This document shows positions 4 to 13,658 of a stretch of 51,691 nt of DNA, piece by piece (position 1 is the first letter of the stretch; the number at the start of each line of letters is the position of its first letter). A program made the translations under genes and the position numbers. Below the pieces are notes generated by a model. It saw nothing but the letters and a program-made list of their open reading frames with translations, was not told the DNA's origin and did no database searches. The DNA is from Ignavibacteria bacterium (GTDB lineage Bacteria > Bacteroidota > Ignavibacteria > Kapaibacteriales > Kapaibacteriaceae), in contig CANGZU010000004.1 in the NCBI GenBank assembly GCA_947458785.1, positions 1 to 51,691 of the forward strand, given 5' to 3'.

Positions 4-83
4 TGTGGATAACCATGCGTTTTTGTGTGGATTCTATACTGATTTAGATGGTAATTCGGGACTAAACCCCTATTTTATCCACA
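4..83. promoter_or_regulatory. DnaA-box-like cluster upstream of fibre cassette 1
   Basis: TGTGGATAA at 4-12 and TTATCCACA at 75-83 are perfect DnaA-box 9-mers in opposite orientations; a degenerate TGTGGATTC lies at 26-34. Confidence 0.55.
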
Positions 84-131: not shown

Positions 132-3100
132 ATGAGTTCACAATTCTACAGCGTTTGCAAACGACTTGGGGCACTAGTCGTTGCACTGCTTGTACTTGGG
201 GTGGCCACGAACGCCCAGCCTGGTATTCCTCGACAGATTTCGTACCAAGGCGTCATATATGATGCAACTGGCATCCCATCGTGCGACAGCACATACACGG
301 TGGACTTCGCTATGTATGACGTTGCAGTTGGTGGAGCACCGCTATGGTTTGAGCGTCACATTATCCAGACGAAGTCTGGCATGTTCAGTGTGATTCTTGG
401 GAACACAACGGCACTAAACGTGAACTTCAACCAGCGTCTCTGGCTCGGGCTCTCGGTGAATGGACGCACGGAACTCAATCCGCGAACATTCCTCACCGCA
501 GTGCCGTATGCATTGAACTCAGAGTGGTCAAACATGTCGGGCATGGCTAATGATGTTGCCGACTCTGTGCGCTTGAGGATTCGCGGACGCCTTGCAGCAG
601 TTGCAGGATCCGACATTGATGTCAGCGGCAGCTTGGACAGCATGAACCTCACAATAAAGCCGAACACGGTAGGCGCTGATGAACTCGAAGAACTTCACCC
701 TGGTGTCATTGGTCCATTTGGCTCGGCAACACAGTCGGCAGTGATCACGATCGACCCACAAGGACGTGTGGTTCGTGCCGGACAGGTTCCGATCTCGGGC
801 GTTAGTCCAGGGGGTGCTGCCGGTGGTGACCTTGCCGGTACATATCCCAATCCTACCATCAGAGATGGGGCGATTACGACTGCTAAGATTCCGGATGGTT
901 CGGTCACGGGTGCAAAGATTGCTCCGGGTACGATCGGCACTGCGAACATTGCTGATGGTGCAATTACAGCATCGAAGATCGCCAATGATGCAGTAACCAG
1001 CGCCGCCATCAAGGATGGCGATGTCAATACGATTGATCTCGCAGACGATGCGGTAACGAGTCCGAAGATCAGGGACGGCGAAGTAAGAACACAAGATCTT
1101 GCTAACGATGCAGTAACGACTCCGAAGGTTGTTGATGGTGCTATCACGAGCGCGAAGATGTCGACCATGCAGGCGATTTTCCCTTCTACATATGGTGCGT
1201 CATCAAAGGTCCCACAGTTCACCGTTGACCAAGCTGGTCGAATCACCAACATTCGCGAAGTAGATGTGACAATCGCTCCAGGTGGACTTATTGCTGGGGG
1301 CGACCTTGAAGGCTCATTCCCGAATCCAACGATTGGAACGGGTAGGGTCACCTCGACCAAGATCCTCGATGGAACGATCCAAGACATTGATCTTGCAAAT
1401 GGTGCGGTAACCACACCAAAGATTTCGGACTTTGCTGTAACAGCTCAGAAGATCGCTGACGGAGCAGTCACAGCTGCTAAACTTGAGAACAGCGGAGTTG
1501 GAGTTGGTACGTATGGTTCTCCAACGCAAGTTGGACAGTTCATTGTCGACGCAAAGGGTCGCATCGTCTCTGCTCAGAACGTCCCAATCGCCGGCATGCC
1601 CCCTGTTGGAGTTGCTGGTGGAGACCTTACGGGAACATATCCCAACCCCCTGATCGCACCTGATGCCATAACATCTGCCAAGATCCTTAACGGCACAATC
1701 GCTACGGGTGATATTGCACCAAACACGATCACTAACGAACTCATCGTTGATAATGCGGTTACAACAACGAAGATCGCCGATGGCAACGTGACAAATCAGA
1801 AGTTGGCTGACAACGCAGTTTCAACAATGAAACTCCAGGATGGTTCAGTTACTGGCCCGAAGCTTGCAGATAATGCAGTGACAACAACGAAGATTGCAGA
1901 TGGAAACGTCACAGGAGCCAAGCTCGCCGATGGTGCTGTTTCTACGGCTAAACTTGCTGACGGTGCAGTTACAACGAACAAGTTGGCAGACGGATCAGTT
2001 ACGGCAGCCAAATTAGCCCCTGGTTCGGTCACTGCAGACAAGCTGGAAAACTCAGGCGTTGTGCTCGGCCAATACGGTTCGGCAACACAAGTGGGTCAGT
2101 TTACTGTTGACTCAAAGGGCCGCGTTACGCAGGCTGCAAACATCACAATCAGTGGTGTCGCTCCAGGTGGCCCAGCCGGCGGCTCCCTATCAGGAACATA
2201 TCCAAACCCATCAATTGCTCCGAATGCAGTCAACTCATCAATGATTCAGGACGGTACAGTTTCTGCAGCAGACCTTGCAGATAATGCTGTAACGACGCAG
2301 AAGATTCTCGACGGAAATGTAACGACGTCTAAGCTGGCCGACGGAGCAGTAACAACAGCAAAAATCCAGGATGGAAACGTTACAACAGCGAAACTTGCTG
2401 ATGGTGCTGTAACGACATCTAAGATTGCTGACGGATCTGTAACAGGTGCAAAGCTTGCCCCAGGTTCAGTAACTGCAGATAAGCTCGATAACACTGGCGT
2501 AATCCTTGGGCAGTATGGTTCAGCCACCCAGGTCGGTCAGTTCACGGTGGACTCAAAGGGGCGCATCACTGCAGCTCAGAATGTCACGATAGCAGGCGTC
2601 GCACCGGCAGGTCCTGCAGGCGGATCGCTCACAGGAACATATCCTAACCCATCGATTGCTCCAAGCGCCGTTACCTCGCAGATGATCCTCGATGGAACAG
2701 TTGCAACTGTAGACCTTGCCGATAACGCAATTACGACTGCGAAGATTGCTGACGCAAATGTCACAACCGCAAAACTCGTTGATGGTGCGGTTACGACTGC
2801 CAAGCTTGGTGACAATGCTGTAACGACCGCAAAGATCCAAGATGGCAACGTGACAACATCAAAACTTGCTGATGGTTCAGTTACTGCGGCTAAGCTTGCT
2901 CCCGGATCTGTCTCGGGAGATAAGCTTGAGAACACAGCCGTGGTTGTTGGTCAGTATGGCTCGGCCACACAAGTAGGTCAGTTCACGGTTGATTCAAAGG
3001 GCCGTGTTACGCAGGCTGCCAACATCACCATCACCGGAGTAACGCCGGGTGGAGCAGCTGGCGGTTCTCTCACAGGCACATACCCTAATCCATCTATTGC

Positions 3101-4931
3101 ACAAAGTGCGGTAACATCAGGTACAATCCTGGATGGTACAGTTGCAACAGTTGACCTTGCAGATAACGCAGTAACAACGCCGAAGATTGCCGATGGTAAT
3201 GTGACGAATGCAAAGCTGGCGGACAATGCCGTTACAACGACGAAGATTCAGGATGGTAACGTAACCACGGCCAAGCTGGCAGATGATGCAGTGACAACTA
3301 ACAAGCTTGATGATGGTGCTGTCACAACGGCTAAGATTGCCGATGGCTCAGTTACGTCAGTGAAACTCGCTGACGGTGCAGTTACTGCAGACAAGTTGGC
3401 CAGCACCGCAGTCGTTACAGGTACGTACGGCTCTGCGACAGAAGTTGGTCAGTTCACTGTGGACTCAAAGGGTCGAATTACGTTCGCACAGAACGTTACT
3501 ATCTCTGGCGTTGCACCATCTGGCGCAGCTGGAGGGTCTCTGACTGGAACATATCCTAACCCAACCATCGCGAACAGTGCTGTTACATCGCCAATGATCC
3601 TCGACGGAACAGTTGCAACTGTAGACCTTGCTGACAATGCGGTCACAACAGCGAAGATTGCAGATGGCAACGTCACAACTGCCAAGCTCGCAGACGGCGC
3701 AGTGTCGGGGGCTAAACTTGGCGACAATGCTGTTACCACGACGAAAATCCAAGATGGCAACGTCACCGGTGCTAAGCTTGCAGATGGTGCAGTATCAACG
3801 GCTAAGTTGGGTGATGGTGCAGTAACGACTGCCAAGCTTGCTGATGGTTCGGTAACAGCCGCAAAGCTTGCTCCGGGCTCAGTCACTGCTGACAAACTTG
3901 AGAACTCAGGCGTTGTGCTTGGTCAATATGGCTCGGCAACTCAGGTAGGTCAGTTCACCGTCGATTCAAAGGGTCGCGTGACACAGGCTGCCAACATCAC
4001 GATCACTGGTGTAACTCCAGGTGGAGCAGCTGGTGGAGATCTTACAGGCACATATCCAAACCCATCGATTGCTGCAAACACGATCAATTCAAGTAACATC
4101 GTTGATGGTGCTGTTGCGACCGGCGACATTGCTACAGGCGCAGTTACAACACCACTGATCGCCGATGGTGCGGTAACAGCAGCGAAGCTCTCAACAACAG
4201 GTGTAAGTGCTGCGACATATGGTTCAGCAACACAGGTAGGCCAGTTCACGGTTGATGCGAACGGACGAATCACTGCGGCTCAGAATGTTACGATCACAGG
4301 TGTTACTCCTGGTGGCGCTGCTGGTGGTGACCTAAACGGAACCTATCCGAACCCAACAGTTGATGGTCTCCAAGGTCGTGCGGTCGCAGCTACGGCACCA
4401 ACGAACAATCAGGTTCTAACATGGGATGCTACCGCTAATACATGGAAGCCTGCTGCCGTAACAGCAACAGCCACTTCAATTGGTGGAATTGGCGTTGACC
4501 CTGTTCTCAATCCAAACGACGGAGATGCTCTCACGTATGATGCAGCTCAGAATAAGTGGGTTCCACTCAATCCGACGGCTAACATCAAACAGTTGATTCT
4601 GGGCGAGGGTACCGCAATCAATATCGACTTGCTTCGCGGTGCGGGAACTGTGATCAACAACATCGATATCTCAGATCACGCGTTCTTCCGGATGACGAAT
4701 GCTGGACAAGGCTCCGACATTACGGGATTTGATAACGGTGCGAATGGTCGCGTGATCATCATCATCAATCAGTCCGGCAAGAACATAACGTTCCAAAATG
4801 AGGATGCTCGCTCTGACGCTGACAACCAGCTCATTTTGGGTGTTGCTAACAAGACAATCGGTAACAACCAGTCAATCACATTCATCTATTCTGGTACTCT
4901 GGGCAAGTGGGTCCTCATGGCCACTACCTAA
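132..4931 (+). CDS. Secreted tail-fibre-like repeat protein (fibre 1), 1599 aa
   Basis: Sec signal peptide (..ATNA|Q) and an N-terminal 'ISYQG...AVPYAL' domain. Contains 9 copies of a ~49-aa [17 protein letters not shown]...[11 protein letters not shown] module, separated by 4-13 copies of a 10-aa [10 protein letters not shown] repeat. Ends in a beta-rich domain (..KWVLMATT). Confidence 0.9.
714..4361 (+). repeat. Nested intragenic protein repeats of fibre 1 (9 modules, ~71 decapeptides)
   Basis: Decapeptide runs between modules, counted from the translation: 10,5,13,9,9,10,11,4. Confidence 0.85.
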
Positions 4932-4950
4932 TCCAATCACAGTATCAAGG

Positions 4951-5868
4951 ATGAAAACAACTATGAAACACATACTCGTGATTGGTTGTCTTCTCTGCCT
5001 CGTGGGATCAACGATGCAGGGTCAGACAGTCGTAGGCGGGGTTGTTACCAGTGGAGCGACAACTGCGATCCAACTTGGTGACTACCACATGCAAGGGGCT
5101 GTTGGCCTCCCAATTGTTGGCGAAGCGGGTCTCGACCCAATCGTCCGCTCCGGCATCATCAGCCATGGTAACGCCGTGCAGAAGTTCTACGAATCAACTC
5201 TTATTCGAATCGACAGCGTCGTGAAGCAGATTGGCGACACGTTCGCACTCGATGTTCTTTACGGTGCGTCGTGCGCGTTGTTCCAAAGCAACGTGGCATC
5301 CCGCGATTGGGAACTCAAGGTCAGCTTTAACCGGACTGTTCTCGAGCCCCTTCGATATGACTCAATCGTTGATGATGGCGAACGCTACACGATCACTTTA
5401 ACAGGAAACGCTGCATCAAATGGCGGCGTGTTAACACGGCTGCTTCTGATGGGACGCTTGGGGAATGATTCTCTTACTGATGTTCGCCTCGAATCATTTA
5501 GATGGATTGATGCTCAGCGTCAGTACGTGCAATCAACGCCTGGCTCTGTCCTGCTGCGTGGACTCTGCAATACCTACGGTTCTACACGACTTCTCAAAGA
5601 TCCGAGCAAGATGGCTATCCTGATCGCACCGAACCCCGTTACGGGCTCGTCGTTCACCATGCGCACGTATTCCGATCGTCCGCAAGTTGGCACTCTTGTG
5701 GTAACAGACATTCATGGAAACGTGGTGTACACAGCAGACCGGGTGGAGGCAGGATCAACATGGCCGATGACAACTGTTGAGCTTCAGGTTATCCCTGCTG
5801 GTTCGTACACAGTTGCTCTCTTTACGGAAAACGATGTGGTACGAACAACTATGGTGAAGCTGCCATGA
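4951..5868 (+). CDS. Secreted partner protein 1 with Ig/cohesin-like core and T9SS-type C-terminal sorting domain
   Basis: ATG at 4951 (or 4963) followed by a signal peptide. C-terminal 'APNP...GSYTVAL...TTMVKLP' resembles a type A CTD. Paralog of 11932-12840. Confidence 0.75.
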   Translation: MKTTMKHILVIGCLLCLVGSTMQGQTVVGGVVTSGATTAIQLGDYHMQGAVGLPIVGEAGLDPIVRSGIISHGNAVQKFYESTLIRIDSVVKQIGDTFALDVLYGASCALFQSNVASRDWELKVSFNRTVLEPLRYDSIVDDGERYTITLTGNAASNGGVLTRLLLMGRLGNDSLTDVRLESFRWIDAQRQYVQSTPGSVLLRGLCNTYGSTRLLKDPSKMAILIAPNPVTGSSFTMRTYSDRPQVGTLVVTDIHGNVVYTADRVEAGSTWPMTTVELQVIPAGSYTVALFTENDVVRTTMVKLP

Positions 5869-6788
5869 TATCAAGCTTCTCTCTTGCTCTCATGGCAGCG
5901 TATATGCTTTGCATGACATCGGCATCTGCGCAGCAAACCGATACAACGCATGTGCATGATCACAACCATGGGCACTCACATCAGCATTCAACGAGCAGTC
6001 CTCACCCGCATGACCATTCGCATGCACACGGACACGTGCACGAGCATCAGCATGTGCATGATCACGGTGTACCACATTCGCACGACGAGTTCACGTTAGC
6101 GTTCATAGGCAACCTGGCCACACATAACGCATCATTCAACTCGCTGCCTCCAATCGAAAACTGTTGCACAGGATTCAGCGACAGCAAGGGGCTAGGGTTC
6201 GGCTTTGAGCTTGGATACACAACGCCCCTTACCGCTGATGGCCTTACGATCACCCCACACATCGGCTATTTGAACATGCCCGTGTCATTTGATTCGTATT
6301 CTACCGAGAAGGCGTTTACTGGTGGTGTTGTTTCTGGCGATGCCCTGTTCCGTCACACGCTCGATGTGACATGGACAACCGTAACGTTTGGTGCTCGACT
6401 TGAGTATCCTGTTCTTAGTGGCTTCTACCTTGGATTTGGGCTCGACGGCTACTTCTTTGCAACTGGGTCTTTCCATCAGACAGAGACACTTGAAGAGCCG
6501 TCCAACCTTGTTTTCGAAACGGGCACGCGCGTCCGTTTGGATAGGAATGGATACGTTCGCGGCCAGAATGCCGTCGTGTTCAATGCCACAGGGTCTGCAC
6601 GCATCCGCTTGATTGAAAAGCAACAAGGTTCTGTTGGTGTCGACATCTTCGGACGCTACTCCCTTCCCCTTCAGCCATTGTTCGCCGCCCAAACATGGAA
6701 GGGTATGTCCGGGAATCCACCGGGTAGATTCTTCATCGATTCGTATTCAATATCGATGCTGACGTTTGGAATCGGATTGGTTTTCTAA
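5865..6788 (+). CDS. Putative outer-membrane beta-barrel protein 1 with N-terminal His-rich tract
   Basis: Signal peptide, alternating amphipathic strands, C-terminal 'TFGIGLVF' (terminal Phe, BAM-signal-like), ENCC motif, and ATGA overlap with the upstream gene. Confidence 0.75.
   Translation: MISSFSLALMAAYMLCMTSASAQQTDTTHVHDHNHGHSHQHSTSSPHPHDHSHAHGHVHEHQHVHDHGVPHSHDEFTLAFIGNLATHNASFNSLPPIENCCTGFSDSKGLGFGFELGYTTPLTADGLTITPHIGYLNMPVSFDSYSTEKAFTGGVVSGDALFRHTLDVTWTTVTFGARLEYPVLSGFYLGFGLDGYFFATGSFHQTETLEEPSNLVFETGTRVRLDRNGYVRGQNAVVFNATGSARIRLIEKQQGSVGVDIFGRYSLPLQPLFAAQTWKGMSGNPPGRFFIDSYSISMLTFGIGLVF
5949..6083 (+). repeat. (HX)n histidine-rich tract
   Basis: 20 His in 45 aa (residues 29-73), all at odd-numbered positions. 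Confidence 0.9.
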
Positions 6789-6813
6789 AGCGCATAACAA
6801 CACAGATTACCGC

Positions 6814-6849
6814 GCGGGACTTCACGGTGAGTGAAGTCCCGCTTTTTTT
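6814..6849 (+). terminator. Rho-independent terminator ending cassette 1
   Basis: Perfect 12-bp stem GCGGGACTTCAC/GTGAAGTCCCGC with a 5-nt loop, followed by T7. Confidence 0.9.
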
Positions 6850-6867
6850 ATAATCAAATATTAGAAT

Positions 6868-6895
6868 TGTGGACAAGTAACCATGGTTATCCACA
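6868..6895. promoter_or_regulatory. Inverted DnaA-box-like pair upstream of fibre cassette 2
   Basis: TGTGGACAA (6868-6876, 1 mismatch) and perfect TTATCCACA (6887-6895); palindrome TAACCATGGTTA at 6878-6889. Confidence 0.55.
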
Positions 6896-6926
6896 GCCAT
6901 GCGCGCGCTACGAGACAGGCTCATCA

Positions 6927-6934
6927 TAATTTTG
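6927..6934 (+). promoter_or_regulatory. Bacteroidota-type -7 promoter element for cassette 2
   Basis: TAATTTTG matches TAnnTTTG, ~110 nt upstream of ATG 7043 and downstream of the terminator. Confidence 0.55.
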
Positions 6935-7042
6935 CGACGCAGGCGTAAAAGCACCGTCGACAAGGGGTTATCGAAATCGGCACTGACGGTCCACGCCACA
7001 TTACATCGAAACAAAACATATTTACACTGTGAGGTTTTTCAT

Positions 7043-10000
7043 ATGGCACAGACGATAGCACGTGGCCTGTTCATGGCGCTCATGTTTGCGGTTTTCATCG
7101 CAGCTGCGTCTATCAGCGCTTTGGCGCAGACGGGCATTCCAAAGAAGATCACGTATCAAGGGGTATTGATCGATACTACTGGCATCCCAGTCTGCGACAG
7201 TGTCTGGACAGTCGACCTCACGGTCTACAATGTAGCGATTGGTGGCACTGGTGTTTGGAATGAACGCCATACAGTTACGACCAGCGGTGGCGTGTTCAAT
7301 GTTATCCTTGGTGAAAAGTCACCACTAAACATTTCATTTGACCAATCCCTTTGGCTCGGCACATCGATCAACAGCCAACCGGAATTGACACCTCGCGTCT
7401 TTCTCACGGCTGTGCCTTACGCACTCAATGCACTCAATGCAAAGTCAGCAGAGATCGCAAGCGCAGTAACGCCGCAGGTTGCTGATTCCATCCGTCAGTC
7501 GATCAACAACCCAACGAACAATATGGGTGATGTACTGATTAATGCCATCAACGGCACTGGAACAACAACAATCAACGCCGCTCGCGTTCAGGGGGCTGCC
7601 TCAGGTGCAGGATCAGACATTACTGTTAACGGCCCACTGAACGCCCTGAACCTCAAGATCAATGACAACACCATTGGTGCTGCTGCTCTGCAGGAGATTC
7701 ATCAGGGTCCGCTCGGACCATTCGGTTCATCCAACACCAGCACTGTGCTTCGAGTCGACGAGCAGGGTCGCGTTACGTTTGCTGAGCAAGTCCCTATCAT
7801 CGGCGTACCACCAGGGGGAACAGCGGGTGGGGAACTCACGGGATTCTACCCGGCACCAACGATTAAAAATGGTGTCATCACTACGGAAAAGATTGCGCGT
7901 GGTGCAGTAACGACAACAGAGCTTGCCGATAATAGCGTTACGACTTCCAAGCTGGTTGACTTCAACGTCACAACACCGAAGCTTGCCGAAGGTGCCGTTA
8001 CATCAGAGAAGATCTCCGGTGGTGCAGTTACAACAACGAAGATCGCCGACAAGTCTGTCACTGAACAAAAGCTTGCAGACTTCGCTATCACTAGCCAGAA
8101 GATTGCCCCTAACACAATCACCGGTGCGAACATCAAGGATGGCTCGATTGGGAGCGATGAACTTTCGCAGATGCCACTCGACGCTGGTCTCTATGGCTCG
8201 TCGACGCTGATCCCACAGATGTATGTAGACAAGTCTGGGCGCATCGTTACGATTCAGAATGTTCCATTGGCTGGCTCGCCCCCTATCGGTCCAGCAGGCG
8301 GCGCGTTGGTTGGCTCCTACCCAAATCCGCAGCTTGCTCTCGGTGTCGTTGGTACTGAGAACATCAAGGACGCAGCGGTAACAACGGCCAAGATTCTTGA
8401 TGGCGCGGTTAGTAATGCCGACCTTGCTAGCAACTCGGTATCGACGGACAAGATCATTGACCGCTCTGTGACGTCACAAAAGCTCATTCCAACGGGTGTG
8501 AATCCAGGTCAGTATGGTTCGTCAACCCACTCAGCAGTTGTAGCTGTCGACTCGTCAGGTCGAGTAGTAACAGCATTTTCAATTCCGATTGCACCAACAG
8601 CTCCGAGTGGTCCTGCAGGCGGGTCATTAACTGGCACATACCCCGACCCACAACTTGGTAACGGTGTTGTCACGAGTGCCAACATCGCTGATGGTACAAT
8701 CCAATCGCTCGATATTGCCAATGGTAGCATTACATCCGCCAAACTGACGACAACAGGAGTTACGTCTGGAATCTATGGCAACGCAACGCAGGTAGGTCAG
8801 GTCACGGTAGATGCTCAAGGCCGCGTAACAGCAGCGCAGAACATCACGATCAGTGGCACAACGCCAGGTGGTGCAGCTGGCGGCGTCCTCTCAGGCACAT
8901 ATCCAAACCCAGGTCTTGGAACTGGAGTTGTAACGTCGAACAACATTCAAGATCTCACGATTACCACCAACGACATAGCTGATGGTGCCATCACCGCTCC
9001 GAAGCACTATCTATCGGGTGTGACAGCAGCAACCTACGGTTCGAACCTGCTTGTTCCTCAGATAACGATTGATGCCCGCGGTCACATCACATCAGCAACG
9101 AATGTTGCTATCTCCGGAATCTCCCCGAGTGGCCCGGCTGGTGGTGTCCTCTCTGGCACATATCCAAACCCTGCCCTTGCCGCTGGTGCCGTTACATCTG
9201 CAGCGATAGCAGATGGTTCAATAACATCTGCAGATCTGGCAGATGGGGCTGTTACAGCAAGCAAGCTGGCCAACACAACTGTTACCGCCGGTTCATACGG
9301 AACGCCAACACAGGTAGGTGCATTTACCGTAGATGCGCAAGGTCGTCTGACAGCAGCATCAAACGTGACAATTTCGGGTGTGACACCAGGTGGCGCGGCG
9401 GGCGGAGTCTTATCAGGGACATATCCGAACCCAACGCTTGCCATCAGCTCTGTGTCATCTGCCAACATTGTAGATGGCACAATAACATCTGCCGACATCG
9501 CGGCTAGCGGCATTGCAACAACCAATCTTGCTGATGCTGCTGTAACCGACGCGAAGCTTTCGGCTACCGGTGTTACCGCCGCAACCTATGGCAGTGCAAC
9601 ACAGGTCGGACAGTTCACCGTCAATTCACAAGGTCGTCTCACCTTTGCCGGCAACGTCACAATTACGGGCACTACACCTGGCGGTTCCGCTGGCGGAGCA
9701 CTCACAGGAACATATCCTAACCCAACGCTCGCAGCCAATTCTGTGAGCTCTAGCAATATCACAGACGGCTCGATCGCAACTGGAGACCTTGGTGATGGCA
9801 TTGTAACACCTGCAAAGCTTTCAAACACTGGTGTTTCTGCTGGCGTTTATGGTTCGTCATCGCAAGTTGGACAGTTTACGGTTGATGCTTCTGGACGAAT
9901 CACAAGCGCAGCCAACGTAACGATTGCCGCTGCAGCTCCAACAGGTGCGGCAGGCGGTGCCCTTGCTGGAACATACCCTAATCCAATTCTTGCAACTGGG

Positions 10001-11896
10001 TCAGTTTCTTCATCGAACATCGTCGATGGTACGATCACAGCCTCGGATGTTGCAGACGGAACACTGAGTTCGGCCAAGATGACTGCAACTGGTGTAACGG
10101 GGGCTTCATACGGTACATCGACACAGGTAGGACAGTTTACCGTTGATGCAGCTGGCCGCATAACCACTGCACAGAACGTTACAATCTCCGGTGTAGTCCC
10201 GGGCGGCAGTGCTGGTGGAGCTCTCACGGGAACGTACCCTAGTCCATCGCTCGCAACAAACAGTGTTGGCTCGGGCAACATCACAGACGGATCGATTGCA
10301 ACGTCTGATCTCGCAGACGGAGCTGTTACAACCAACAAGTTGGCTGCTACTGGCGTAAATGCAGGAACATTTGGTTCTGCCACGCAGGTGGGACAGTTTA
10401 CCGTAGATGCTTCCGGTCGGATTACAAGCGCTGGCAACGTAACGATCACCGGCGCCGCTCCTACAGGCGCGGCTGGTGGTGCACTGTCTGGCACCTATCC
10501 AAATCCAACACTCGCCACAGGCGCAGTAAGTTCTACGTCTATTGCAGACGGCGCTGTTGGCTCGGCTGACCTTGCAGATGGTGCAGTAACGGATGCGAAA
10601 CTTTCGAATACCGCTGTAACCAGTGGCACGTATGGTTCAGCCACGCAGGTTGGTCAGTTCACTGTCGATGCCAAGGGTCGCATCACAAGTGCCACCAATG
10701 TCACCATCACAGGGGCATCGCCAACGGGTACAGCCGGTGGTGCACTCGCAGGAACGTTCCCTAATCCAACACTCGCCAATGGCTCTGTAGGATCGGCAAA
10801 CATCATCGATGGCTCTGTATCAACAGTAGATCTTGCTGATAATGCAGTCACCACAGCAAAGGTTGCTGACGGCGCGATCACCAGTGCGAAGCTCAGCACA
10901 ACGGGTGTTGCCGCCGGTTCGTATGGTACTGCCACTGAAGTTGGATCGTTTACAGTCGATTCGAAGGGTCGCGTCACAGCAGCAGCCAACATCACGATTG
11001 CCGGTGTCACGCCAGGCGGAAGTGCGGGCGGCGCTCTCACTGGTACGTATCCGAATCCGACTCTCGCTACAGGGGCGGTCACATCCACATCGATACTTGA
11101 CGGAGCTGTGGGCACGGCAGATATTGCTGACGGTTCGGTAACAAGTGCTAAGCTCTCAAACACTGCCGTCACGGCAGGCCAGTACGGCACAGCAACACAA
11201 GTAGGTTCATTCACAGTTGACGCGCAAGGTCGCGTAACGGCAGCCAACAACGTAACCATCAGCGGTGTTGCTCCAGGTGGAACAGCTGGTGGTGATCTCA
11301 ATGGCTCCTATCCGAATCCAACGGTTGACGGCCTTCAGGGCCGCGCAGTAGCAGCAACGGCTCCAACGAACAACCAAGTGCTCACGTGGGATGCAACTGC
11401 TAACACATGGAAGCCGGCAACGGTTTCTGCTGACGCATCTACGATCGGTGGCAAGCAGATTACATCACCATTGACACTGCAAGATGGCTTTGCTCTCGTC
11501 TACGACGCTGCTACTGATAAATGGGTAGCTGAGAATCCATCTAGTAACATTGGCAAGTTTGTTCTAACAGAAGGCACAACCATCGACATTGATCTTCTAC
11601 GCGGTGCCACGACTGTCATCAACAACATCAACATTTCTGACAACGCATTTTTCCGCATGATCAATGCAGGCCAAGGCTCTGATATCACCGGCTTTGATAA
11701 TGGTGAGAATGGACGTGTGATCATCATCATCAATCAGTCCGGCAAGAACATCACGTTCCAGAACGAGGACAATCGTTCTGCTGTCGACAATCGCCTCGTC
11801 CTCGGCGTAGCGAATAAGACAATTGGCAACAACCAATCGATCACGTTTATCTACTCTGGAACGCTTCAGAAGTGGGTTCTTATGGCAACAACGTAA
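7043..11896 (+). CDS. Secreted tail-fibre-like repeat protein (fibre 2), 1617 aa
   Basis: ATG 7043 gives a signal peptide (..ISALA|Q) that aligns with fibre 1. Same N-domain, 13 modules with decapeptide runs, near-identical C-terminal domain. Confidence 0.9.
7718..11326 (+). repeat. Nested intragenic protein repeats of fibre 2 (13 modules, ~47 decapeptides)
   Basis: Decapeptide runs counted from the translation: 10,5,3,3,3,4,3,3,3,3,4,3. Confidence 0.85.
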
Positions 11897-11931
11897 TGAC
11901 AGCACCAATGCGTCATAATGAAGGAACAACC

Positions 11932-12840
11932 ATGAGAATAAACATCATCATCCCTCTCCTCCTCGTCATGCTACTTGTTGGCCGCGTGACTGCTCAATAT
12001 GGTGTTGCTGGTGGCGGCGTTACAAGCGGCGCAATCGCAAGCCCCGTTTCGGGCAAGTTCGGATTGCGCGTGTCGATTGGCCAACCATTGCTTGGAGATG
12101 CAGGCCCTGCACCTCGTCTTGCTGGCGGTCTGCAGAGTATCGGCGACTACTATCAACAGAGCTACGAGAACACAACGATTGTTGTTCCCGAGCAGATCCA
12201 ACAGGTTGGAGACACGTTCAACTTCGATCTTAACTACGGTGCTCCATGTGCGTTTTTCCAAGACGGTGTGGAGCGCGAATGGGAATTGAAGCTCACATTC
12301 AACCGAACGGTCCTAGAGCCGCTTGTCTTTGATGCGGTGGACGACAACGGTGAGTATCACACAATCACTGTCACTGGGAAAGCCTCGCTTCAGGCAGGCA
12401 AGCTTGCGACGCTGAAGTTTCTCGCGTTGCTCGGAAACGACAGTACGAGTGTGGTTCGCGTTGAGTCGTTCCGTTGGACGAGTGTACGTCGACAGTTCAC
12501 GCAATCAACTCCTGGATCTGTTACCCTCAAGGGGCTATGCACGACGTACGGCAACACGCGCCTAATCAAAGCACCCGGCAAGACTTCTATTCTTGTTGCT
12601 CCGAACCCAGTTACAGGCTCAACTGTTGGTCTGCGTGTATACGCAGAACAAGCGGTTTCCGGCACAATCGTGATCACTGATATGCACGGCAATGTGATTG
12701 CAAACAAGACAGACGTTGAAGCAGGCTTGCAGTGGCCACTCGTTACCATTGAACTGCCGGTTATTGCAGCTGGCACGTATACTGTGACGTTCGCTGCATC
12801 TGACATCATTGCAAGAACTACTCTTTTGAAACTACCATGA
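11932..12840 (+). CDS. Secreted partner protein 2 with T9SS-type C-terminal sorting domain
   Basis: AAGGA before ATG 11932 and a signal peptide. Shares WELKxxFNRTVLEPL, LGNDS, ESFRW, GLCxTYG and APNPVTGS with partner 1. Confidence 0.78.
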   Translation: MRINIIIPLLLVMLLVGRVTAQYGVAGGGVTSGAIASPVSGKFGLRVSIGQPLLGDAGPAPRLAGGLQSIGDYYQQSYENTTIVVPEQIQQVGDTFNFDLNYGAPCAFFQDGVEREWELKLTFNRTVLEPLVFDAVDDNGEYHTITVTGKASLQAGKLATLKFLALLGNDSTSVVRVESFRWTSVRRQFTQSTPGSVTLKGLCTTYGNTRLIKAPGKTSILVAPNPVTGSTVGLRVYAEQAVSGTIVITDMHGNVIANKTDVEAGLQWPLVTIELPVIAAGTYTVTFAASDIIARTTLLKLP

Positions 12841-13658
12841 TGAACCGCATTCTCGTTCTTATAACGATGTTGATGTTTGGATTGATCCATGCTAGTGCTC
12901 AAGAGTTGCGCTCGAGCGATAGCACAAAGCCTGAATCACGATCGACATCATCGACGGAATGGTCAGTTAATCTCATTGGCTCCTACGGAATGCACGATGT
13001 TGATTTCAATTCTCTGCCTCCAGTAGAGAATTGTTGTTTGGGTTTCGAAAACTCAAACGGCATCGGCTATGGCATTCAGTTAGGTGGCAGTTTCCCATTG
13101 TCTGAAAACGGCCTTCGTCTTTCGACGCGGGCTGGATATCAGCAATTGCCTGTTGCCTATTCGTCGTTTTCGACAAGCCCCGTGTACCTGCCCGGTACTG
13201 GCACTGTAAACGCAGTGTTTAAGCATGGCCTAGATGTTACATTCCACACCGTGCCAGTTCACATAACGTTGGAGTACGAACTTACTGACTGGCTATGGCT
13301 CGGATTGGGGCCAGATGCTTACTACATCGCATCATCTGCGTTTCAACAAACTGAGACGCTCGAGAATCCTTCAGATCTGTTGTTTGAGAACGGATCACGC
13401 ACGCGGATCGACACGACAGGTTCATTGTCGAACTACAATTCGATCGTCTTCAATGCCCACGCTTCACTGCGTGTTCGCCTTGGACGCGATATCGGTTCGA
13501 TTCGCAGTGTTGATCTGCTTGTGGGATATTCACTTCCCCTTACTCCAGTGTTTGATCCTCAAACATGGCAGGGTACAGCCGGGAGCCCCGTTCGCTCGTA
13601 CTTCATCAACAGGTACAACCTCTCACTTCTTACCGCCGGTATTGCGGTTGCGTTGTAG
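12837..13658 (+). CDS. Putative outer-membrane beta-barrel protein 2
   Basis: Signal peptide; shares FNSLPPxENCCxGF and QTETLExPSxLxFExGxR with barrel 1; amphipathic C-terminal strand; ATGA overlap. Confidence 0.75.

Follow-up and report, generated by a model that had tools for sequence, protein, structure and literature searches.

The window analysed here, the whole of a stretch of 51,691 nucleotides (contig CANGZU010000004.1 of assembly GCA_947458785.1, positions 1 to 51,691) from an Ignavibacteria bacterium of the family Kapaibacteriaceae, carries within its first 13.7 kb two tandem sets of three genes (132-6788 and 7043-13658), all six on the forward strand. Each set encodes a giant fibre (A), a smaller partner (B) and an outer-membrane barrel (C). 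We propose that B is an adaptor that docks on the base of the fibre, supplies in trans a type IX secretion system (T9SS) signal and is kept in place by a barrel of its own. We consider this reading to be, on balance, probable, and under it the three products of each cassette would together make up a single cell-surface fibre. The initial annotation of the locus had already described a fibre lacking the T9SS C-terminal domain (CTD) and served by a CTD-bearing adaptor and a barrel; the results presented here support that description, while correcting the family of the barrel and the anatomy of the partner. We know of no prior case of a T9SS signal supplied in trans. If the proposal is true, this locus would be the first such case known to us, and it may point to a new principle, namely that a conserved docking motif lets one protein provide a secretion signal for another in trans.

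The contact between fibre and adaptor was modelled with three copies of the N-terminal domain (N-domain) of the second fibre (A2, residues 29-190), a trimer being assumed, together with residues 20-205 of its adaptor B2, and with our own alignments supplied. The interface score derived from predicted aligned errors (ipSAE) was 0.74 (0.70, 0.74 and 0.78 in the individual runs), whereas the highest-scoring of three controls reached 0.00, and the interaction between fibre and partner postulated in the initial annotation is thereby recovered as a prediction. The partner has a predicted local distance difference test (pLDDT) score of at least 79 in the complex, and at least 94% of the contacts agree between runs. 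Of 80 solved complexes 58 reach the tool's mark, as do 2 of 110 mismatched pairs; these counts are only a rough guide here because the alignments were our own and the fibre was entered in three copies. The predicted interface joins residues 21-78 of B to residues 36-50, 81-86 and 105-126 of the fibre, the same residues being involved in all three chains, and the interface stretch of B is the part that appears disordered when B is modelled alone. In the residue pairs with the lowest predicted error (39/48, 38/49, 41/46 and others) the two numbers add up to the same value, a sign that strands are paired in antiparallel orientation, in this case an I-T-Y-Q-G-V strand of the fibre with an adaptor strand ending in G-Q. 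Both strands hold the best-conserved positions of their respective families, among them Q39 and G40, which are invariant in the fibre alignment, and the G-Q that is nearly invariant in the adaptors. The N-domain of the mosaic adhesive trimer (MAT) fibres has been described as lacking a structural homologue in the PDB (PMC10769870), and with no solved N-domain structure reported it is unlikely that the score of the complex reflects a structure already known to the predictor. The model supports, and does not prove, the binding of the fibre N-domain to B.

The end of the partner, which the initial annotation had likened to a type A CTD, is matched in B2 by TIGR04183, the model for this domain, with 23.9 bits (curated cut-off 23) over residues 222-298 of 302, that is, at the extreme C-terminus. 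One close homologue carries a precomputed PF18962 annotation, and the T9SS genes for SprA, PorV and PorU are present in the genome, all over their cut-offs. The model of B (17 sequences, pLDDT 74) consists of a region of low confidence when modelled alone (17-74), a sandwich at 75-200 and a second sandwich at 218-300 with a pLDDT of about 88. By fold, the first sandwich resembles type I cohesins, with template modelling (TM) scores of 0.53-0.62 on target length, and no significant match to the cohesin sequence model PF00963 is found in this middle domain. As modelled, B thus contains in addition to its CTD a cohesin-like domain, which had been missed in the earlier reading. Since large barrel-linked cargo proteins share this cohesin-like module, B looks like the C-terminal anchoring module of a large cargo in which the passenger has been replaced by a segment of about 55 residues.

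The fibres themselves show no comparable domain. No TIGR04183, PF18962 or type B model matches A1 or A2 at E<=1, and both proteins are absent from a genome-trained list of 109 CTD-bearing open reading frames (ORFs). The claim that the fibre is devoid of a T9SS CTD is therefore upheld, and a secretion signal of its own was looked for on the window fibres and not found. The shaft is composed of modules of 87+10n residues (9 in A1 and 13 in A2), each made of n decapeptide repeats and a knot of about 47 residues that ends in G-G-x-L-x-G-x-Y-P-N-P. DUF5907 is matched in A1 with 46 bits, and phage tail-fibre PHROGs match both the A1 shaft (phrog_892, E 8e-149; phrog_28766, E 8.5e-147) and A2 (E 8.1e-80 and 7.4e-45, respectively). 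The best-conserved part between the cassettes is the C-terminal 191 residues (79% identity versus 33-55% elsewhere). In a profile of our own, the last 90 or so residues match the relative L037 over a stretch that Pfam assigns there to PF25692, the C-terminal sandwich of phage depolymerases, and in the short fibres of loci L041-L043 the PF25692-like subdomain is internal and not terminal. The fibre is presumably trimeric and phage-tail-fibre-like.

At the other end of the fibres, a beta-rich N-domain of about 130 residues follows directly after the signal peptide. It matches NF053851, the NCBIfam model for the N-domain of Bdellovibrio MAT fibres, with 29.4 bits in A2 (cut-off 60), and A1 has no match at E<=1. 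The general build is that of MAT fibres, in which a Sec signal peptide precedes a beta-rich N-domain of about 130 aa, a long fibre and a C-terminal tip (PMC10769870). Apart from the weak match to the N-domain model, the fibres described here differ from MAT fibres in having a shaft of decapeptide repeats and DUF5907-like knots, in their conserved rather than variable tip, in the absence of S74, and in a host that possesses a T9SS plus a dedicated adaptor and barrel.

The model of C (pLDDT 87) comprises eight long and two short strands; its short turns are located at 88-92, 149-152 and 220-221, and its nearest folds (OmpA, OmpT and OpcA, all with low TM) are only generic small-barrel matches. 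The initial identification of the third product as a small outer-membrane barrel stands, but this barrel is not PorP- or SprF-like: because the modelled barrel has eight long strands and these nearest folds, C is not of the 14-stranded FadL type, and neither PF11751 nor TIGR03519 matches C1 or C2 at E<=1. No other Pfam or NCBIfam model matches the two proteins. A genome-wide search with PF11751 returned 0 matches, a result that is uninformative given that control genomes gave none either. The family of C-like barrels has 20 members in this genome. PF13568 (OMP_b-brl_2) is matched by 8 of 26 aligned barrel members at E<=1e-3, among them the barrel of a third cassette (37 bits, cut-off 27); C1 and C2 do not match. 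Going by the model, C is an eight-stranded barrel, probably of the OMP_b-brl_2/OmpA type. Most of its paralogues are about 650-760 aa long and end in an OmpA peptidoglycan-binding domain. In C1 and its orthologues (L002, L003, L004, P0010 and P0012), a His-rich stretch of about 45 residues, at about 27-72 in C1, separates the signal peptide from the first strand and may bind metal; C2-type barrels do not have it.

A further link between adaptor and barrel is suggested by cysteines. The first loop of C carries a twin Cys, of which Cys66 is conserved in at least 90% of 26 sequences and Cys67 in all of them; the protein ends with its last strand and has no periplasmic C-tail with C-x-C. In the model this loop would face outward. 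Within the genome, a C-like barrel gene lies directly downstream and on the same strand of 12 of the 109 CTD ORFs, and a pre-CTD Cys motif (C-x(1-5)-G-x(1-3)-R followed by a hydrophobic residue) is present in 8 of these 12 barrel-coupled ORFs versus 1 of the 97 others. Seen from the barrels, 11 of 14 with the twin Cys have a CTD partner of this barrel-coupled kind, and 4 of 5 without the twin Cys lack one.

The same genome also encodes large T9SS cargo (591-1677 aa, measured from stop to stop) on contigs 10/3, 15, 17, 72, 78, 92, 95, 115 and 116. Each of these nine genes, four of which are cut by a contig end, precedes a C-like barrel gene that is usually fused to OmpA, and the pre-CTD Cys motif is present in five of the nine proteins (C72, C92, C10, C95 and C78). 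On contigs 10/3 the barrel-OmpA gene is split by an assembly break, the contig ends overlapping in sequence. These pairs have the look of a class of cargo with carriers, a counterpart of type B CTD cargo and its PorP/PorE.

The initial annotation implied that the three families belong together, and they co-occur well beyond the window. A third, more diverged cassette is found in the same genome, divided between contigs 25 and 20; the break falls inside the fibre gene and the contig ends overlap in sequence. The order of fibre tip, B and C is kept in seven other genomes of the genus, where five complete fibres range from 589 to 1898 aa. A pattern scan, whose strict patterns confined it to the genus-level group, recovered this order in 12 of 12 loci, labelled Candidatus Kapaibacterium or Ignavibacteria bacterium. 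Throughout the order, 31 full-length fibre tips were matched at E<=1e-50 in 20 of 201 genomes, and a B match lies within about 100 nt of 29 of them. Stand-alone B-like proteins were found across the order as well, and in the 20 sampled B-like loci, which belong to four families, a C-like barrel always follows B (in 18 of them in the long, OmpA-fused form) and a giant same-strand ORF precedes it in 18. The N-domain is present on all seven of the giant ORFs whose 5' end lies within the sampled locus. The contigs of many relatives end just upstream of B-like genes, as expected with repetitive fibre genes. In several genomes the locus adjoins the gene for isocitrate dehydrogenase.

At the scale of the phylum, the N-domain profile finds matches in 78 of 301 sampled Bacteroidota genomes. 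Twenty loci were sampled from 18 genomes belonging to other orders and classes; in 12 of them the immediate same-strand neighbour of the fibre gene encodes a small CTD protein, in two more such a protein is encoded two genes away, and all ten of the small proteins tested exceed the TIGR04183 cut-off. Common to B and these proteins is a docking motif of about 50 residues placed right after the signal peptide, which reads roughly V-x-S-G-G, about 10 residues, T-x-G-Q-x-x-x-G, about 10 residues and G-F-W. In eight adaptor proteins examined for it, the motif is left uncovered by Pfam. A profile of 24 docking segments retrieved 1954 cluster representatives at E<=1e-3 (26 of them at E<=1e-10) among 1.84 billion. 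The best 150 of these proteins have a median length of 176 aa (91 measure 150-215 aa), with the motif at about residues 20-75, and 92 of them match TIGR04183 at E<=1e-3; names are recorded for a few, as either hypothetical protein or T9SS type A sorting domain-containing protein. The family includes one protein from a metagenome-assembled genome (MAG) of Calditrichia and another from a MAG labelled Chloroflexi. Thirty of the best 150 (P0028 and 29 others) weakly match NF058579 (best E 1.2e-9; 33.8 bits versus a cut-off of 240, for instance), the NCBIfam model of PamT, a predicted pilus tip protein of the candidate phyla radiation (CPR) whose gene neighbourhoods are reported, in the preprint that named it, to hold a conserved tail-fibre-like gene (PMC13278184). 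The motif may thus be of use to fibres outside the Bacteroidota. It is conceivable, if rather doubtful, that the docking motif is a general handle for N-domains of the MAT type, to which most Bacteroidota would fuse a CTD alone, the present order a CTD with a cohesin-like domain and a disulfide-linked private barrel, and lineages outside the phylum possibly other modules, and that the anchor of Bdellovibrio MAT fibres carries the same motif.

Taken together, these observations suggest the following path. The fibre would be exported by Sec without a T9SS signal of its own and, presumably in the periplasm, the motif of B would plug into the base of the N-domain trimer, one adaptor per three chains, its docking strand beta-pairing with the conserved Y-Q-G strand of the fibre. 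The type A CTD of B would then take the whole complex through the T9SS translocon in a form of piggyback export, after which the barrel encoded right behind B would retain it at the surface, this barrel being in the present order usually tied to peptidoglycan via its OmpA domain. A disulfide between the pre-CTD Cys of B and the twin Cys of the barrel is a speculative addition, which draws on the co-occurrence of the two motifs and on the precedent of SprF and PorG, whose twin cysteines bond GldK.

Several observations weigh against this reading. The complex is a model and not a measurement, and a single pair, A2 with B2, was modelled. B1 falls just under the TIGR04183 cut-off with 21.6 bits, and PF18962 is weak for both adaptors (15.3 bits for B2, cut-off 27). 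Likewise, the outward placement of the twin Cys comes from the usual topology rule for barrels applied to a model and from nothing else. At the level of gene neighbourhoods, two fibre tips from another family (G094 and G127, loci L029 and L030) have no B or C downstream, G127 encoding a B-C pair on another contig (L049), and in 6 of the 20 phylum loci an adjacent CTD protein was not seen. A strict automatic count is lower still, at 9 of 20 loci, with CTDs in 10 of 25 adjacent ORFs versus 4 of 71 others; this count missed two CTD proteins confirmed by NCBIfam. Four loci from a single family (L050-L053) have a giant upstream ORF with a CTD-like domain of its own at the end; in L051 and L053, the two tested, this domain scores 24.7 and 25.8 bits with PF18962 (cut-off 27) behind an S74 chaperone match, so that B is not always the sole possible export signal and may act as an anchor rather than as a pilot of export. 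Finally, part-by-part correlations of identity are uniformly high (0.76-0.93) and lack discriminating power.

The main rival to export in trans is that B and C are an anchor only, the fibre leaving the cell by another route or through an unrecognised signal. The docking model fits anchoring as well as it fits piloting, the fibres with a borderline CTD just mentioned keep B and C all the same, and the fusion of the barrel to a peptidoglycan-binding domain in 18 of 20 sampled loci is what an anchor would display. On the other hand, the cassette shows no other signal or export gene, and across the phylum the minimal partner is the motif plus a CTD, with neither barrel nor extra domain, which leaves the CTD as the constant feature; a purely anchoring role for B and C is in our view fairly unlikely. 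Anchoring and export would be distributed differently again if the C-terminal domain of the fibre were a new kind of T9SS signal with the barrel at its service, in the manner of SprB and SprF, and B an accessory cargo. This scheme would account for the conservation of the last 191 residues, and cognate barrels beside type B CTD cargo are known (PMC9143113, PMC12618676). We regard it as quite improbable, in that the last 90 or so residues correspond to the PF25692 stretch of L037, the subdomain is internal in L041-L043, no CTD model matches the fibres, and the same tip occurs without a neighbouring barrel in L029 and L030.

The disorder of the B motif when modelled alone, and its folding only against the trimer in the model, would also suit a periplasmic assembly cap or chaperone of the N-domain trimer that is exported and discarded separately. 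A periplasmic chaperone, however, needs neither a CTD nor a dedicated barrel, and both the coupling of B to the barrel in 20 of 20 loci and the pre-CTD Cys motif point to a fate at the surface, which renders this explanation very unlikely. The least credible of the alternatives takes the cassettes for what is left of a prophage or tailocin and not for a cellular surface system. The tail-fibre PHROG matches are certainly very strong, but B and C have no PHROG match, all three proteins bear Sec signal peptides, and the locus is chromosomal, conserved across the order and flanked in several genomes by isocitrate dehydrogenase. A motif-docked adaptor that provides the T9SS signal in trans is the reading we retain.

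The comparison with known systems places this proposal between several of them. As in SprB-SprF and PG1035-PorP-PorE, the gene for a T9SS cargo adjoins that of its own outer-membrane barrel (PMC9143113, PMC12618676), and as in PorP-PorE an OmpA-type peptidoglycan binder is often linked to the barrel, a separate PorE there and a fused domain here (PMC12618676). The CTD of B is however type A-like and not type B, and the barrel is eight-stranded and about 270 aa long, as opposed to the 14-stranded FadL-type PorP (PMC9143113). SprF and PorG bond GldK through twin cysteines, C-x-C in a periplasmic C-tail, and share with C the conservation of twin cysteines in a barrel protein, which in C are instead a C-C pair in the first loop (PMC12635249). 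In contrast to SprB-type cargo, the fibre to be displayed is here a polypeptide of its own, which the docking motif would link to the adaptor. With ordinary type A cargo, which relies on the PorV shuttle, the PorU sortase and attachment to anionic lipopolysaccharide (A-LPS), B has in common its TIGR04183-type end, in a genome with PorV, PorU and SprA. It departs from such cargo in being an adaptor of about 175-300 aa with the docking motif as sole passenger and, in this order, a private barrel. The phage tail fibres of PHROG 892/28766 share the shaft repeats (E ~1e-147), and the terminal subdomain is related to PF25692, whereas the cassette fibres are chromosomally encoded cellular proteins exported by Sec, and their N-domain and partners are absent from phages. 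As an analogy only, the cohesin-like fold and connector role of B recall the cohesin-dockerin pairs of cellulosomes, with the differences that the fibre contact is predicted through an N-terminal motif and not the cohesin-like domain, and that no significant cohesin sequence match was found.

A literature search on T9SS piggyback export or CTD-less cargo, supplementary files lying outside its scope, found nothing relevant, and by that measure the system is undescribed. If the proposal is correct, it would bring about 1,950 clusters together as a protein family that so far lacks annotation. It would also bear on a common class of fibres, given that those with the N-domain comprise, besides the Bacteroidota fibres counted above, the prey-recognition fibres of Bdellovibrio. 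In Bdellovibrio bacteriovorus, the N-domain of MAT fibres presumably binds an unidentified surface element, and the 2024 paper describing them leaves the attachment of the fibres to the cell open (PMC10769870). The present locus offers a concrete answer in a motif-docked adaptor that bears both a secretion and an anchoring signal, and thereby suggests a way in which surface fibres of a widespread bacterial kind may be exported and anchored.

The layout of the two cassettes (Table 1) agrees with the initial annotation as regards repeated gene order, tight coupling, terminator and signal peptides. Read base by base, the stop codon of A1 (TAA, 4929-4931) is followed by an ATG at 4951, leaving a gap of 19 nt, and that of A2 (11894-11896) by an ATG at 11932, leaving 35 nt; in both cassettes B and C are joined by an ATGA overlap (5865-5868 and 12837-12840). 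The hairpin between the cassettes has a stem of 12 bp with 8 G-C pairs, followed by T7, and ranks first among the terminator-like sites of the region, which number 12 versus 12.3 in shuffles, that is, without excess. All six products start with a Sec-type signal peptide (basic start, hydrophobic run and an A-x-A/Q-type end), judged by eye from the translations and without a predictor. A longer ORF start for A2, at 6899, merely adds a non-signal leader. Since the window begins at the contig end, more genes may lie upstream of cassette 1.

Table 1. Features of the two fibre cassettes and of the sequences that flank them (positions in the window).
Feature	Position	Strand	Remarks
14-mer TGTGGATAACCATG, includes DnaA-box-like TTATCCACA	4-17	+	upstream of cassette 1
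Fibre A1, 1599 aa	132-4931	+	signal peptide; MAT-like N-domain ~219-578; 9 shaft modules; 191-aa C-terminal region 4356-4928
Adaptor B1	4951 or 4963 to 5868	+	signal peptide; docking motif ~5014-5178; cohesin-like domain (modelled) 5179-5565
B1, distal part	5605-5865 (CTD)	+	pre-CTD Cys motif, then type A CTD; TIGR04183 21.6 bits
Barrel C1, 307 aa	5865-6788	+	His-rich N-terminal extension; twin-Cys loop
Intrinsic-terminator-like hairpin + T7	6814-6842	+	between cassettes
14-mer, second exact copy, inverted	6882-6895	-	upstream of cassette 2
Fibre A2, 1617 aa	7043-11896	+	N-domain (mature part ~7127-7504); 13 shaft modules; C-terminal region 11321-11893
Adaptor B2, 302 aa	11932-12840	+	docking motif ~11989-12153; cohesin-like domain (modelled) 12154-12537; type A CTD 12577-12837
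Barrel C2, 273 aa	12837-13658	+	8 long strands (modelled); twin Cys residues 66-67 (13032-13037), first loop

The products of the two cassettes are 48% (A1 and A2, over 1457 columns), 49% (B1 and B2, E 4e-104) and 44% (C1 and C2, E 1e-73) identical. In the last 191 residues of the fibres, the best-kept stretch, 151 of 191 residues are identical, while at the DNA level identity is only 69.6% and different codons specify 88 of the 151 residues in common; on this sequence evidence, the duplication of the cassette is old. Metatranscriptome contigs from three runs of two studies cover parts of both cassettes, and three of them span the junctions A1-B1, B1-C1 and A2-B2. Being contigs from RNA libraries, they are no proof of transcription or of a single transcript, and the uncovered parts carry no meaning.

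Upstream of the cassettes, exact copies of the 14-mer occur solely at the two sites of Table 1, with six matches at <=2 mismatches versus 0.39 expected. The two copies lie, in opposite orientations, 115-161 nt upstream of the start codons of the two window fibres, and the 14-mer is found within two mismatches upstream of 5 of the 14 fibre starts examined, these two included. It may be the site of a regulator.

Related loci show further arrangements. In one relative (L002, 7502-9330) the second cassette has decayed, a fragment of the fibre N-domain leading straight into a barrel remnant, the search match to which contains three stop codons. On contig 2 of the window's own genome (L016, 7000-17000), a 210-aa barrel-like protein and a 197-aa CTD protein accompany three short fibres, the first of which has a MAT-like N-domain. 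The N-terminus of the 197-aa protein aligns with the docking motif, a likeness seen visually and by alignment only, and a docking profile built from the genus-level copies recovered in this genome the three B proteins alone and missed it. In a different operon type of the order (L035, L041 and L043), conserved proteins of about 430 aa and about 700-900 aa accompany short fibres in tandem, three to five in number. In L035 a 226-aa neighbour has a CTD-like end (TIGR04183 13.2 bits, cut-off 23), the fibres of L041 and L042 carry PF25692 tips, and the L043 operon includes a 274-aa barrel-like protein.

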